In this document: in pieces, positions 55,594 to 60,629 of the stretch
Layout: each line of letters starts with the position of its first letter
Position numbering within the stretch: position 1 is the stretch's first letter
Assembly (NCBI GenBank): GCA_965203485.1
Contig: OZ241892.1
Span: 2,272,001-2,336,000, forward strand
Direction: 5' to 3'
Length of the DNA stretch: 64,000 nt
Origin: Longimicrobiales bacterium
GTDB taxonomy: Bacteria; Gemmatimonadota; Gemmatimonadetes; Longimicrobiales; Gaopeijiaceae
Program-made: the position numbers and the translations under genes
Notes under the pieces: model-generated
Database searches by the model: none
Seen by the model: the letters and a program-made list of their open reading frames with translations, nothing else
What the model was told of the DNA's origin: nothing

Positions 55594-55803
55594 CTAGCAG
55601 GTGGGTCCTGCAGAGTCGGAGTTGGTCTTGAGTGTGGGGTCCCCGGGTTCGCCGCAGCCGCTGCCGGGGTAGAAGGAGCCGATGCGGTCGAAGGGGGAAC
55701 AGTCGAGCTTGGGGGGCGTCCACGGCCGTCTGGCCCCCTTGGCCGATCGTTCCTCGGTCTGCGCGCTCAACAGGGGGGGGGGGGGGGGGGGGGGGGGGGA
55801 CAT
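55594..55803 (-). CDS. Putative RiPP precursor 1 (in frame; core GSFYPGSGCGEPGDPTLKTNSDSAGPTC)
   Basis: AAAGGA upstream, leader RRPWTPPKL, next to kinase and sulfotransferase genes. Confidence 0.75.
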   Translation of the reverse strand: MSPPPPPPPPLLSAQTEERSAKGARRPWTPPKLDCSPFDRIGSFYPGSGCGEPGDPTLKTNSDSAGPTC

Positions 55804-55862
55804 GCATGGAGTTCTTTCCTTTGCCGAAGAGGTCCGAAATGCCCGAAGAAGCCAGCGGCGTC

Positions 55863-55891
55863 AAGGTAGCTCGGGCCGTCAAGGGAGGCAA
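55863..55891 (-). promoter_or_regulatory. Putative sigma70-type promoter for the precursor (repeated in every unit)
   Basis: TTGCCT-N17-TACCTT on the minus strand about 60 nt upstream of the ATG. Confidence 0.45.
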
Positions 55892-56518
55892 GGAAGCGGC
55901 CCCGGAGATTGTCGCAGGCTCTTCGCTGAACCTGGTGGTTCGCGGTCTACCGCCCAGGCGCGGGAAGCGGTCGAACGCCGTCTTCAGCTCCGCGCCCGGC
56001 ACCCACTCCCCCGTCGCCGCCATGTGGGACCCCACATGTCCAATCGACACGCTCCCCAACGCGGCCAGCCAGCCCCCGGACCTGTTCCGCCTTTCGGCGC
56101 TCGAGCTCCCGGCGCACCGCCGGCTCCGTGATGCCGCTCACGGCGTTTCCCAGCTCATCTCATGCGCTTCGACCCCCCCCCCCCCCCCCCCCGAGGATGC
56201 TGCCTCCCCGACTGAGCATCCCACACGGGACCCACGATCGCGTCTTCTCCGCCATTCGCCTCATTGTTGCGGCGTCCCGGCCGGCCATGCGTCAGCGAAA
56301 CGGTCCGGCCATCCTCCAGCAGGAAGCGGCTGCCGTTCCATGTGGTGAACGGCAAGCGGCCTTCCACGCACTGGCGCCGTGGCATGTTCCACGCCGGCTT
56401 CGGCAAGGACTCCGGCGCCGGTCCGCGCCAGACGGTCACGTCGCTGCCATGGTCGCGCAACCAAGGCGACCCCGCCCGCTCCAAGTCCGGGTCGGCGTCG
56501 ACAGTGAACGGTGCCAGC

Positions 56519-56737
56519 CTAGCAGTTCATGGGTGTGGCGGCATCATCGGAGTTGGTCTTGTCAGTTGGGCTCCCGGGTTCGTAGCAACCGCCGCCGGGG
56601 TAGAAGGAGCCGATGCGGTCGAAGGGGGAACAGTCGAGCTTGGGGGGCGTCCACGGCCGTCTGGCCCCCTTGGCCGATCGTTCCTCGGTCTGCGCGCTCA
56701 ACAGGGGGGGGGGGGGGGGGGGGGGGGAGAGAGACAT
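56519..56737 (-). CDS. Putative RiPP precursor 2 (in frame; core GSFYPGGGCYEPGSPTDKTNSDDAATPMNC)
   Basis: Same leader as copy 1, different core. Confidence 0.75.
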   Translation of the reverse strand: MSLSPPPPPPPLLSAQTEERSAKGARRPWTPPKLDCSPFDRIGSFYPGGGCYEPGSPTDKTNSDDAATPMNC

Positions 56738-57443
56738 GATGGAGTTCTTTCCTTTTGCCGAACAGGTCCGAAATGCCCGAAGAAGCCAGCGGCGTCAAGG
56801 TAGCTCGGGCCGTCAAGGGAGGCAAGCAAGCGGCCCCGGAGATTGTCGCAGGCTCTTCGCTGAACCTGATGGTTCGCGGTCTACCGCCCAGCCGCGGGAA
56901 GCGGTCGAACGCCGTCTTCAGCTCCGCGCCCGGCACCACTCCCCCGTCGCCGCCATGTAGGGACCCCACATGTCCAATCGACACGCTCCCCAACGCGGCC
57001 AGCCAGCCCCCGGACCTGCTCCGCCTTCCGGCGCTCGAGCTCCCGGCGCGCCGCCGGCATCCATGATGCCGCTCACGGCGTTTCCCAGCTCATCTCATAC
57101 GCTTCGACCCCCTGAGGATGCTGGCCTCCCCGACTGAGCATCCCACACGGGACCCACGATCGCGTCTTCTCCGCCATTCGCCTCATTGTTGCGGCGTCCC
57201 GGCCGGACGGCCATGCGTCAGCGAAACGGTCCGGCCATCCTCCAGCAGGAAGCGGCTGCCGTTCCATGTGGTGAACGGCAAGCGGCCTTCCACGCACTGG
57301 CGCCGTGGCATGTTCCACGCCGGCTTCGGCAAGGACTCCGGCGCCGGTCCGCGCCAGAGGTCACGTCGCTGCCATGGTCGCGCAACCAGTGCGACCCCGC
57401 CCGCTCCAAGTCCGGGTCGGCGTCGACAGTGAACGGTGCCAGC

Positions 57444-57666
57444 CTAGCAGTTCATGGGTGTGGCGGCATCATCGGAGTTGGTCTTGTCAGTTGGGCTCCC
57501 GGGTTCGTAGCAACCGCCGCCGGGGTAGAAGGAGCCGATGCGGTCGAAGGGGGAACAGTCGAGCTTGGGGGGCGTCCACGGCCGTCTGGGCCCCTTGGCC
57601 GATCGTTCCTCGGTCTGCGCGCTCAACAGGGGGGGGGGGGGGGGGGGGGGGGAGAGAGAGAGACAT
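57444..57666 (-). CDS. Putative RiPP precursor 3 (same core as copy 2; ATG out of frame, alternative TTG at 57626)
   Basis: GA run next to the poly-G is 4 nt longer than in copy 2; ATG-to-stop length 223 nt. Confidence 0.6.
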
Positions 57667-58375: not shown

Positions 58376-58587
58376 CTAGCAGGTAACGCCTCCGGAAGGC
58401 TGGGAGTTGGTCTTGTATTTGGTGCTCCCGGGTTCGAAGCAGTTGCTACCGGGGTAGAAGGAGCCGATGCGGTCGAAGGGGGAACAGTCGAGCTTCGGGG
58501 GCGTCCACGGCCGTCTGGGCCCCTTGGCCGTTCCTCGGTCTGCGCGCTCAACAGGGGGGGGGGGGGGGGGGGGGGGGAGAGAGACAT
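58376..58587 (-). pseudogene. Putative RiPP precursor 4, out of frame (core GSFYPGSNCFEPGSTKYKTNSQPSGGVTC)
   Basis: 4-nt deletion near 58530 in the leader; ATG-to-stop length 212 nt. Confidence 0.6.
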
Positions 58588-59296
58588 GATGGAGTTCTTT
58601 CCTTTGCCGAAGAGGTCCGAAATGCCCGAAGAAGCCAGCGGCGTCAAGGTAGCTCGGGCCGTCAAGGGAGGCAAGGAAGCGGCCCCGGAGATTGTCGCAG
58701 GCTCTTCGCTGAACTTGATGGTTCGCGGTTTGCCGCCCAAGCGCGGGCGGTCCGGTCCACGTTCTTGCGCAACGCCGCGAACAGCCTCTCGACACGAATC
58801 GTCTTGCCGCGTCCGGTCAGCCACCGGTCCATCGACACGCTCCCCAACGCGGCCAGCCAGCCCCCGGACCTGCTCCGCCTTCCGGCGCTCGAGCTCCCGG
58901 CGCGCCGCCGACTCCATGATGCCGCTCACGGCGTTTCCCAGCTCATCTCATGCGCTTCGACCCCCCGAGGATGCTGGCCTCCCCGACTGAGCATCCCACA
59001 CGGGACCCACGATCGCGTCTTCTCCGCCATTCGCCTCATTGTTGCGGCGTCCCCGCCGGACGGCCATGCGTCAGCGAACGGTCCGGCCATCCTCCAGCAG
59101 GAAGCGGCTGCCGTTCCATGTGGTGAACGGCAAGCGGCCTTCCACGCACTGGCGCCGTGGCATGTTCCACGCCGGCTTCGGCAAGGACTCCGGCGCCGGT
59201 CCGCGCCAGACGGTCACGTCGCTGCCATGGTCGCGCAACCAAGGCGACCCCGCCCGCTCCAAGTCCGGGTCGGCGTCGACGGTGAACGGTGCCAGC

Positions 59297-59513
59297 CTAG
59301 CAGGTAACGCCTCCGGAAGGCTGGGAGTTGGTCTTGTATTTGGTGCTCCCGGGTTCGAAGCAGTTGCTACCGGGGTAGAAGGAGCCGATGCGGTCGAAGG
59401 GGGAACAGTCGAGCTTCGGGGGCGTCCACGGCCGTCTGGGCCCCTTGGCCGATCGTTCCTCGGTCTGCGCGCTCAACAAGGGGGGGGGGGGGGGGGGGGG
59501 GGGAGAGAGACAT
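59297..59513 (-). CDS. Putative RiPP precursor 5 (same core as copy 4; ATG out of frame, alternative TTG downstream)
   Basis: Extra A at the tract edge; ATG-to-stop length 217 nt. Confidence 0.6.
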
Positions 59514-59625
59514 GATGGAGTTCTTTCCTTTGCCGAAGAGGTCCGAAATGCCCGAAGAAGCCAGCGGCGTCAAGGTAGCTCGGGCCGTCAAAGAAGGCAA
59601 GGAAGCGGCCCCGGAGATTGTCGCA

Positions 59626-60100
59626 GGCTCTTCGCTGAACCTGATGGTTCGCGGTCTACCGCCCAGGCGCGGGCGGTCCGGTCCACGTTCTTGCGCAACG
59701 CCGCGAACGCCAGCTTCTCGGCACGAGTCTTGCCGCGTCCGGTCGGCCACCGGCAACGCGTCCTCGCGAGCGCGGCGCTGTCCTGGGCCAGCAGCTCGCG
59801 GTGTTCGGCGTGCCGCGCCTTGTCCACCGCGTCCGCCTGGTGCTCGGCCACATGGAAGCGGTCGAACGCCGTCTTCAGCTCCGCGCCCGCCACCCACTCC
59901 CCCGTCGCCGCCATGTTAGGGATACCACATGTCCATCGACACGCTCTCCAACGCGGCCAGCCAGCCCCCGGACCTGCTCCGCCTTCCGGCACTCGAGCCC
60001 CCGGCGCACCGCCGACTCCATGATGCCGCTCACGGCGTTTCCCAGCTCATCTCATGCCCCCCCCCCCCCCCCCCCCCCCCCGAGGATGCTGCCTCCCCGA
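59626..60100 (-). mobile_element. ISL3 family transposase remnant (longest internal fragment, unit 5)
   Basis: VSMDMW, FDRFHVAEH..DAVDKAR..EHREL, LRK..RTARAWA are ISL3 DDE-domain motifs; right IR GGCTCTTCG. Confidence 0.8.
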
Positions 60101-60410
60101 CTGAGCATCCCACACGGGACCCACGATCGCGTCTTCTCCGCCATTCGCCTCATTGTTGCGGCGTCCCGGCCGGACGGCCATGCGTCAGCGAACGGTCCGG
60201 CCATCCTCCAGCAGGAAGCGGTTGCCGTTCCATGTGGTGAACAGCAAGCGGCCTTCCACGCACTGGCGCCGTGGCGCGTTCCACGCCGGCTTCGGCAAGG
60301 ACTCCGGCGCCGGTCCGCGCCAGACGGTCACGTCGCTGCCATGGTCGCGCAACCAGTGCGACCCCGCCCGCTCCAAGTCCGGGTCGGCGTCGACGGTGAA
60401 CGGTGCCAGC

Positions 60411-60629
60411 CTAGCAGTTCAAAGGGATTCCTCCTAGATTAGTGGAGTTGGTCTTGTCAGTTGGGCTCCCGGGTTCGTAGCAACCGCTGCCGGGATAGAA
60501 GGAGCCGATGCGGTCGAAGGGGGAACAGTCGAGCTTGGGGGGCGTCCACGGCCGTCTGGGCCCCTTGGCCGATCGTTCCTCGGTCTGCACGCTCAACAGG
60601 GGGGGGGGGGGGGGGGGGGGGGGAGACAT
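60411..60629 (-). CDS. Putative RiPP precursor 6 (in frame; core GSFYPGSGCYEPGSPTDKTNSTNLGGIPLNC)
   Basis: Same leader; ATG-to-stop length 219 nt. Confidence 0.75.
   Translation of the reverse strand: MSPPPPPPPPLLSVQTEERSAKGPRRPWTPPKLDCSPFDRIGSFYPGSGCYEPGSPTDKTNSTNLGGIPLNC

Follow-up and report, generated by a model that had tools for sequence, protein, structure and literature searches.

A tandem array of predicted lasso peptide precursors with four distinct cores and poly-C tracts after the start codon in a Longimicrobiales bacterium

Lasso peptide gene clusters that also encode a kinase, a nucleotidyltransferase, and a sulfotransferase have been described in Firmicutes (PMC8498205), and gene cluster families for highly modified lasso peptides have been reported in sponge microbiomes (PMC9426513). 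We analyzed a 64,000-nt stretch (hereafter the window) of contig OZ241892.1 (positions 2,272,001 to 2,336,000, forward strand) from the genome of a Longimicrobiales bacterium (assembly GCA_965203485.1; here G000, 95% complete), together with adjoining DNA beyond the window (locus L001). Near its end, the window carries an array of small precursor genes that, judged from its sequence, is a real feature, very likely a library of lasso peptide precursors. We consider it likely that its six units form a tandem four-core library, whose products would be processed by an RRE protein, a B2 peptidase, and a cyclase into Tyr1-Glu8 lassos locked by a disulfide, and in which a run of C after each start codon would act as a per-copy switch. 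This reading builds on what was observed directly, namely the anatomy of the units, the enzyme genes, the pattern of divergence, and the tracts.

The array consists of six direct repeats (U1 to U6) of ~925 bp each, located at 55.3-61.0 kb of the window with a spacing of 921-1120 bp. Each unit has a small minus-strand open reading frame (ORF), with stops at 55594, 56519, 57444, 58376, 59297, and 60411. Alignment of the units and these stops confirmed the original prediction, made from the letters of the window alone, that six near-identical units encode four distinct cores, which are those of U1, U2 and U3, U4 and U5, and U6. The consensus it gave, GSFYPG[SG][GN]C[GYF]EPG[DS][PT][TK][LDY]KTNS-x(6-9)-C-stop, is exact, and the tails that follow KTNS do change in length by multiples of 3 (18, 24, 21, and 27 nt). 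In reading direction, each unit is made of an ISL3 remnant, a purine-rich ribosome site, an ATG, a C24-27 tract, the RRPWTPPKL leader (WTPPKL is present in 6/6), the core, the stop, and a ~310-nt kinase gene start. Three precursors are in frame from their ATG: U1 (55594..55803, 69 aa), with a predicted core YPGSGCGEPGDPTLKTNSDSAGPTC at 55594-55671 and a C27 tract at 55773-55799; U2 (56519..56737, 72 aa), with YPGGGCYEPGSPTDKTNSDDAATPMNC at 56519-56602 and C24 at 56704-56727; and U6 (60411..60629, 72 aa), with YPGSGCYEPGSPTDKTNSTNLGGIPLNC and C25 at 60599-60623. U3 (57444..57666), whose core is that of U2, is offset by +1 from its ATG, has two extra TC units before its C24 tract (57629-57652), and is open from a TTG at 57626. 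In U4 (58376..58587; predicted core YPGSNCFEPGSTKYKTNSQPSGGVTC, C24 at 58554-58577), the leader has lost 4 nt, so that ATG and core are no longer in the same frame. U5 (59297..59513), with the core of U4, is again at +1, has an extra T after its C24 tract (59480-59503), and is open from a TTG at 59479. All six genes are on the minus strand. The U4 deletion also joins the start of the leader in frame with the kinase fragment, giving a 145-aa hybrid frame (58150-58587, minus strand) that is probably incidental.

The DNA between the precursor genes is made up of gene remnants. Directly 3' of the precursor stops lie ~310-nt 5' fragments of an HPr-like kinase gene (56203..56518, 57128-57443, 58060-58375, 58981-59296, and 60095-60410, all on the minus strand); a kinase gene that is intact and located beyond the window matches them at 85-87% identity. 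After U1, there is a longer, frameshifted remnant of that gene (55079..55593, minus strand). The spacer in its longest form contains an ISL3-family transposase remnant (59588..59992, minus strand; PF01610, E 1.1e-7, above cut-off), to which homologous DNA exists at G000:3426303-3426607. Alignment of the spacers revealed deleted ISL3 remnants in the other spacers and upstream of U6 (about 55810-56200, 56740-57125, 57670-58055, 58590-58980, and 60630-61050), with deletions that differ from spacer to spacer. Since the flanks are composed of an ISL3 remnant and a kinase fragment, they are pseudogene DNA. Rfam gave no match between 52000 and 64000, a search of 55200-61600 for a sigma-70 consensus promoter was negative, and the precursors had no match in Pfam or NCBIfam.

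The genes next to the array point to the chemistry of its products. We found, 6-10 kb from the array and just outside the window, 1) an RRE (PF05402, E 1.5e-17) that is the sole PqqD match in the genome, 2) a B2 peptidase that is above cut-off for NF033537, keeps its Cys and His, and is the sole Transglut_core3 match in the genome, and 3) a lasso-type cyclase of 645 aa with PF00733 above cut-off. The cyclase retains the SGGLDS and GN motifs, as do cyclases that lie beside ordinary lasso precursors. Because the only RRE and the only B2 of the genome occur within ~10 kb together with a lasso cyclase, a nucleotidyltransferase, HPr-like kinases, sulfotransferases, and a cytochrome P450, the six units are very likely lasso precursors. 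The proposal that the leader is of the lasso type and binds an RRE is thus supported, as is that of a functional peptide product, by these enzyme genes and by the RRPWxPPxL leader shared with related clusters. Weighing against this assignment, the best NCBIfam match of the cyclase, NF033535 (E 6e-46), reaches 157 bits for a cut-off of 525, and no ABC exporter was recognized among the genes identified in L001 at 1.5-9.3 kb, a count that involved no genome-wide search. Sequence searches of the PDB returned no lasso B2 or lasso cyclase structure. In the proposed pathway, RRE, B2 peptidase, and cyclase would process the precursors into lasso peptides, whose Ser/Thr/Tyr residues would be modified by the sulfotransferases, the nucleotidyltransferase, the P450, and those kinases that are intact.

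How widespread is this cluster? Cyclases 72-78% identical are present in ENA and Logan assemblies, and two other studies provided sponge metagenome runs with contigs to which the array region aligns. At 39-42% identity, cyclase loci were found in four genomes, which are G344 and G345 (Azotimanducaceae), G346 (Longimicrobiales, same family as the source), and one member of the Bryobacterales. A leader with RRPWxPPxL is common to the related clusters. In G346, one leader type occurs on 13 precursors, three of which lie in tandem; their cores are open, share an invariant G1..D8 ring, and comprise 12 distinct sequences. G345 encodes a single precursor, and the two of G344 differ in their cores. 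A second precursor type of G346 (L089:6096-7400) is present as three tandem copies with a spacing of ~550 bp, a KPWVPPRL leader, and an Asp-rich ring, and the 12-kb locus L089 contains no homologues of the cluster genes tested. Other searches returned less. The cyclase matched 4/300 genomes of the phylum, at 30-31% identity and beside ordinary lasso precursors, and a precursor profile matched 1/150 genomes of the family. A precursor search of 60 relatives gave 2 weak matches, each with an internal stop; single-precursor searches gave no relatives, returning only the precursors' own cluster plus one 12-residue poly-Pro chance match. The cyclase alone had no match in genome_contigs, an alignment had none in metagenome_contigs, and no precursor was seen ≤10 kb from the cyclase of locus L031. 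In the Atlas, the matches at 0.90-0.92 were all to unnamed clusters, and weak leads to families of lasso precursors appeared only below 0.8. As side observations, the loci L030, L062, L063, L066, and L090 (G346) encode lasso precursors with multi-Cys tails ending in Y-x-G-S, each often followed by a P450, and seven P450 paralogs are found within 22 kb of one cyclase.

Next to the nature of the precursors stands the question of where they are cleaved. The leader motif [YW]xxPxL is placed at -17/-14/-12 (PMC10368454). With the Trp of the array leaders at -17, the core starts at Tyr and a Glu falls at +8 in 4/4 core types, and Glu is also at +8 in the 3/3 closest-leader precursors of G344 and G345. 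Each predicted core has two Cys, at position 6 and at the C terminus. The predicted product has a Tyr1-Glu8 ring and a disulfide from Cys6 to the C-terminal Cys, similar to class III lassos, which have a ring-tail disulfide (PMC13352647). For Tyr1-Glu8 lassos with one disulfide, the calculated neutral monoisotopic masses are 2389.98 Da for U1, 2727.05 Da for U2/U3, 2688.16 Da for U4/U5, and 2821.23 Da for U6. A lasso beginning with Tyr1 has precedent, as have rings of 7-9 residues (PMC5974421), and noncanonical first residues have been seen in metagenomic lassos (PMC12670498). Since the residue at -2 in this register is Ser rather than the usual Thr (rarely Ile/Val/Ala), with Thr only in the remnant copy, and since the seventh precursor, located in L001, is one residue longer, both of which speak against Tyr1, the register is a prediction. 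The same library might instead be cleaved in an Ile(-2) register, which would yield Ser1 and Glu at +10 (products about 234.1 Da heavier) and hence a ring of 10 residues, which would be unusually large, or else a modified peptide that is linear or held by a disulfide alone. In G346, position -2 before the G1-D8 ring is occupied by Ile or Val, and Trp is found at -15. Applied to the array, this spacing gives Ile(-2) and Ser(+1). G344 and G345 have Val/Ile at -2, Ile(-2) is validated for BsfA (PMC10368454), and the corresponding residues of the seventh precursor are Val-Gly-Ala. However, rings are described as having 7-9 residues (PMC5974421), and it is the standard -17 spacing that gives Glu at +8 with the closest leaders. 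We conclude that Tyr1 is considerably the more probable of the two registers, and that a Ser1 product of this kind is unlikely. The cores end in Cys and not in the C-terminal Ser that serves as the phospho-acceptor in paeninodin-type peptides; the relatives in G344, G345, and G346 end in Ser.

Having a predicted product, we asked where the units differ. Comparing the six units pairwise, the leader is 98-100% identical, the upstream 140 nt are 91-99%, and the downstream 300 nt are 98-100%, whereas the Tyr..KTNS block is 80-82% identical between types (96% for U2/U6) and the tails 39-56%. Counted per column, 16/54 positions vary in the core, compared to 27/543 in leader and flanks (Fisher p 1e-7), and the densest 84-column window holds 41 variable columns, which was reached in 0/5000 permutations. 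Divergence is thus not uniform and is concentrated in the core. The leader, described as invariant, largely lives up to this in identity; it has nevertheless undergone two amino-acid changes in the array and the 4-nt deletion in U4, and the +1 offsets of U3 and U5 leave 3/6 copies out of frame. The invariance of Cys-stop across the array is not independent evidence, because these codons sit at the edge of the homogenized flank; in the seventh precursor, which has a different flank, the Cys is one residue before the stop.

The array could in principle owe this pattern to faulty assembly, given that the units are near-identical and the homopolymers long. We rejected this candidate, which is very unlikely, since the units are set apart by many substitutions and distinct spacer deletions, and since contigs from a second sample (X3) and from runs of two other studies, share the flank and carry several core branches. 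In X3, the depths of contigs with the U2-type core, a U4-like core, and the single kinase paralog are 232.6, 115.9, and 113.3, respectively, a hint of a different copy number that we did not use because depth does not equal copy number.

The original prediction attributed the variable cores to diversifying selection, and as stated this is not supported. In the alignable core of the four types, divergence at synonymous sites (pS, 0.233) exceeds that at nonsynonymous sites (pN, 0.151), the values for the leader being 0.021 and 0.016, so that a comparison of leader and core gives no dN/dS > 1 in the alignable core. Since the tails cannot be aligned, dN/dS is not applicable to them; this verdict covers the alignable core only, and selection for variety may act on the tails. 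Synonymous divergence of the core is ~10 times that of leader and flanks, and exceeds that of the flanks with p<0.005 in 4/6 type pairs, which are not independent. Selection on the protein cannot raise synonymous divergence, and it follows that the cores either predate their flanks or were swapped in the form of cassettes. Ongoing positive selection on new point mutations after a recent duplication would agree with variation that is sharply limited to the core and in frame, with the U1-U5 pair, the only one in which pN (0.24) exceeds pS (0.08), and with tails too diverged for testing; it is at odds with the mean core values, with synonymous sites so much more diverged than neutral flanks, and with the conservation of the U2 core protein across studies. 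This core recurs in the sponge metagenome run X5, from another study, where 4/4 changes are synonymous (chance 0.002). We regard this explanation as quite improbable. A diversity-generating retroelement (DGR) mutagenizing the core was also considered, since A is present in 11/16 variable core columns, and rejected: an RVT_1 search of the genome was negative, the A-rich AAG-ACC-AAC block is invariant, and the tails change in length. With no reverse transcriptase found and the A-rich block unchanged, a DGR is largely refuted, and we attach next to no weight to it.

The best fit to the pattern is provided by functional core alleles that were kept for a long time within pseudogene flanks homogenized by recombination, as has been described for the cyanobactin cassettes of Prochloron (PMC3062557). 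Consistent with this, the precursors of G346 have a ring pS (0.40) above pN (0.20), with loop and end near 1:1, and among the differences listed the divergent-core contigs in X3, X5, X6, and X7 show a net core length change of 3 nt in 4/4, the X6 and X7 contigs having a 1-nt deletion inside the kinase fragment. Against it count the depth of only 3.5-5.4 of the second X5, the X6, and the X7 variant contigs, and the synonymous core divergence of U1-U5 and U2-U6, which is not significantly above that of the flanks. As U5 and U4 share both their core and the type of the following spacer, and likewise U3 and U2, we take the array to have arisen from an earlier one of four cores through two recent duplications. 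The ring block of U6 is nearly that of U2 (2/54 differences) and its tail is unrelated, which we read as a block exchange near the invariant KTNS codons. A one-gene block would have been amplified through unequal crossing-over, with U2/U3 and U4/U5 as the latest duplications; recombination between copies would keep the flanks near-identical and reassort ring and tail blocks; and several old core alleles would be maintained by purifying, probably balancing, selection.

Every array unit has a C24-27 tract ≤14 nt from its ATG. C14-27 tracts follow the ATG in 6/7 precursors here, 16/16 in G346, 2/2 in G344, and 0/1 in G345, i.e. in 24/26 precursors of four genomes and two phyla, and a further precursor from ENA likewise starts with poly-Pro. 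Among the G346 copies, those of the second precursor type, with poly-C after the ATG, are all +1 off frame and have an ATG just past the tract. CCC represents 34.5% of Pro codons, so coding does not explain pure C runs, and a ribosome site with an ATG lies just upstream of 1/34 other long tracts of the source genome. Of the 24 tract-bearing precursors, 7 are in frame, as expected of random lengths (p 0.83), 14 are at +1, and 3 at +2 (chi-square p 0.02, with copies that are not independent), figures to be read with the caution that tract lengths in assemblies are unreliable and that some frame offsets stem from other indels; the cores are open in 24/24. This per-copy layout is that of frameshift phase variation, and suggests that slippage of the C run would turn each precursor copy on or off. 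Such ON/OFF switching is the least certain step of our reading, and we put it somewhat below an even chance. Several observations speak against it. The excess of +1 copies could reflect assembly bias. C/G runs of ≥14 nt are common regardless of gene: the source genome has 42, and the counts for five further genomes are 31, 11, 30, 10, and 42. A C6 run that belongs to the spacer has itself grown to C20 and C25 in two units (56173-56192 and 60057-60081), compared to 5-6 nt in the remaining four. The genome encodes MutS and MutL. Finally, a downstream TTG here, and an ATG in 8/13 copies of G346, may allow the tract to be bypassed.

Across the source genome, there are 42 G/C runs of 14-30 nt and zero of 12-13 nt, and the same excess occurs in G001, G002, and G344-G346. 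Outside the array, a TTG-like hexamer follows 12/34 of the long runs, compared to 6.7% of the short ones, and two runs precede a -10-like hexamer (e.g. G000:319758), hexamers which suggest promoter-type contingency loci. In locus L029, a C24 run lies within an apparent decayed leader motif (PWTPPPP...; L029:7757) and a C22 run at the 3' end of a B2 gene (L029:4397).

A decaying cluster would account for several of these features at once: the array would consist largely of pseudogenes, the C runs would be a by-product of mutation across the genome, and the out-of-frame copies would be dead or assembly errors. The region does bear signs of decay that count against a working library, including kinase pseudogenes and IS remnants, the loss of motif residues in one kinase, the U4 deletion, the damaged leader motif of the seventh precursor, and a precursor remnant in L001 that contains a stop. 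The long tracts across the genome and the +1 skew fit this explanation too, as does the failure to find the cluster in 2 same-genus genomes searched with the precursor. On the other hand, all tract-bearing cores are open; the frames of the cyclase, RRE, B2, nucleotidyltransferase, two kinases, two sulfotransferases, and P450 are open; and tracts occur at the start codon in three genomes whose tract surroundings differ. We consider decay doubtful, and retain the four-core library as the preferred reading.

The remaining genes of the region frame the array, with a kinase and sulfotransferase pair on either side. To its left are HPr-like kinase 1 (54147..55067, minus strand, start approximate; TIGR04352 E 4e-4, below cut-off) and sulfotransferase 1 (53251..54150, minus strand, start approximate; PF00685 E 5e-24). 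In the lasso-kinase motif of kinase 1, the His is replaced by Arg and the second Asp by Asn, making it likely inactive. To the right are HPr-like kinase 2 (61498..62442, plus strand; TIGR04352 E 1.3e-8, below cut-off), with His, GKS, and DD intact, sulfotransferase 2 (62442..63332, plus strand, start approximate; PF00685 E 3.4e-25), and the start of the P450 (63697..64000, plus strand), the remainder of which is beyond the window. The adjoining segment (G000:C1 2335697-2343213, L001) contains the rest of the P450, the precursor remnant, kinase 3, the cyclase, the seventh precursor, the RRE, the nucleotidyltransferase (NTP_transf_5), and B2. Kinases 2 and 3 retain the His, GxxGxGKS, and DD residues named for BsfK, which kinase 1 does not. 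A short FYPGDGCFEPG sequence, resembling the ring of the seventh precursor, is isolated at G000:C1:781156-781209, far from the cluster and with no leader in that locus (L002). The cluster is bordered at 50975-53176 of the window by an ORF that we take to be HNH-like and restriction-type, for which there is no Pfam match, and by a repeat family, presumably 6-bladed/NHL-like, with several further copies in the genome.

Beyond this locus, we tentatively propose, with somewhat more doubt than confidence, that sponge symbionts of two phyla maintain phase-variable lasso libraries, in which sister cells would express different subsets of cores through one enzyme set, with reshuffling of rings and tails, and whose phosphorylated or sulfated products would be disulfide-locked Tyr1 lassos or have 10-residue rings. 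The array provides four concrete cores of predictable mass, and a relative 12 or more, for a cluster type of sponge symbionts that includes an uncharacterized sulfotransferase step. In assemblies, 17/24 copies cannot be read in frame from the start codon, so that genome mining misses such precursors. If the tracts switch, phase variation, known for pathogen surface and defence genes, would extend to the choice of a natural product in each cell, which would be one testable reason why the chemistry of marine invertebrates is sporadic.

In the literature searched, which left most subscription literature outside, we found no report of phase-variable precursors of RiPPs (ribosomally made peptides with post-translational modifications) or of symbiont homopolymers, and, judging by titles, no report of lasso precursor tandem arrays of this kind. 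The closest parallels are partial. With the poly-G/C contingency loci of Campylobacter jejuni (PMC8355987), the array shares an intragenic homopolymer whose length sets the frame; it differs from them in its tracts of 14-27 nt, where theirs are mainly 9-10, in the presence of mismatch-repair genes, in its target, a precursor of a natural product, and in that switching is only predicted. Paeninodin, pseudomycoidin, and the bsf cluster of Bradymonas sediminis (PMC8498205, PMC10368454) have in common with it the split B1/B2, the cyclase, the HPr-like kinase, the nucleotidyltransferase, and the sulfotransferase, and the same kinase/nucleotidyltransferase clusters share the [YW]xxPxL leader at -17/-14/-12 (PMC10368454). 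They have a single precursor, in contrast to six tandem and two further copies here, and a phosphorylated C-terminal Ser instead of a C-terminal Cys with Ser at -2; the paralogs of kinase and sulfotransferase, the P450, and the poly-C after the start codon set the present cluster apart. The lasso families of sponge microbiomes (PMC9426513) combine lasso genes with sulfo- and nucleotidyltransferases and oxidoreductases, as here, and relatives of the array occur in sponge metagenome runs; the present family may be among those listed there, while precursor arrays, core variation, and tracts are features of the present array that the accessible part of that paper does not describe. Class III lassos BI-32169 and 9401-LP1, and the Tyr1 lasso Snou-LP (PMC13352647, PMC5974421), likewise have a single Cys in the ring, at position 6, and another at the C terminus, and allow Tyr1; by comparison, the cores here are longer (25-28 aa), with an 8-residue Glu ring, tailoring enzymes, and a nonactinobacterial symbiont as the source. 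Finally, the cyanobactin pat/tru cassettes of Prochloron didemni (PMC3062557) likewise belong to a symbiont of a marine invertebrate and vary short cores within near-identical DNA, whereas the array described here relies on predicted lasso chemistry, with one core per gene in a tandem array, pseudogene flanks, and homopolymer tracts.

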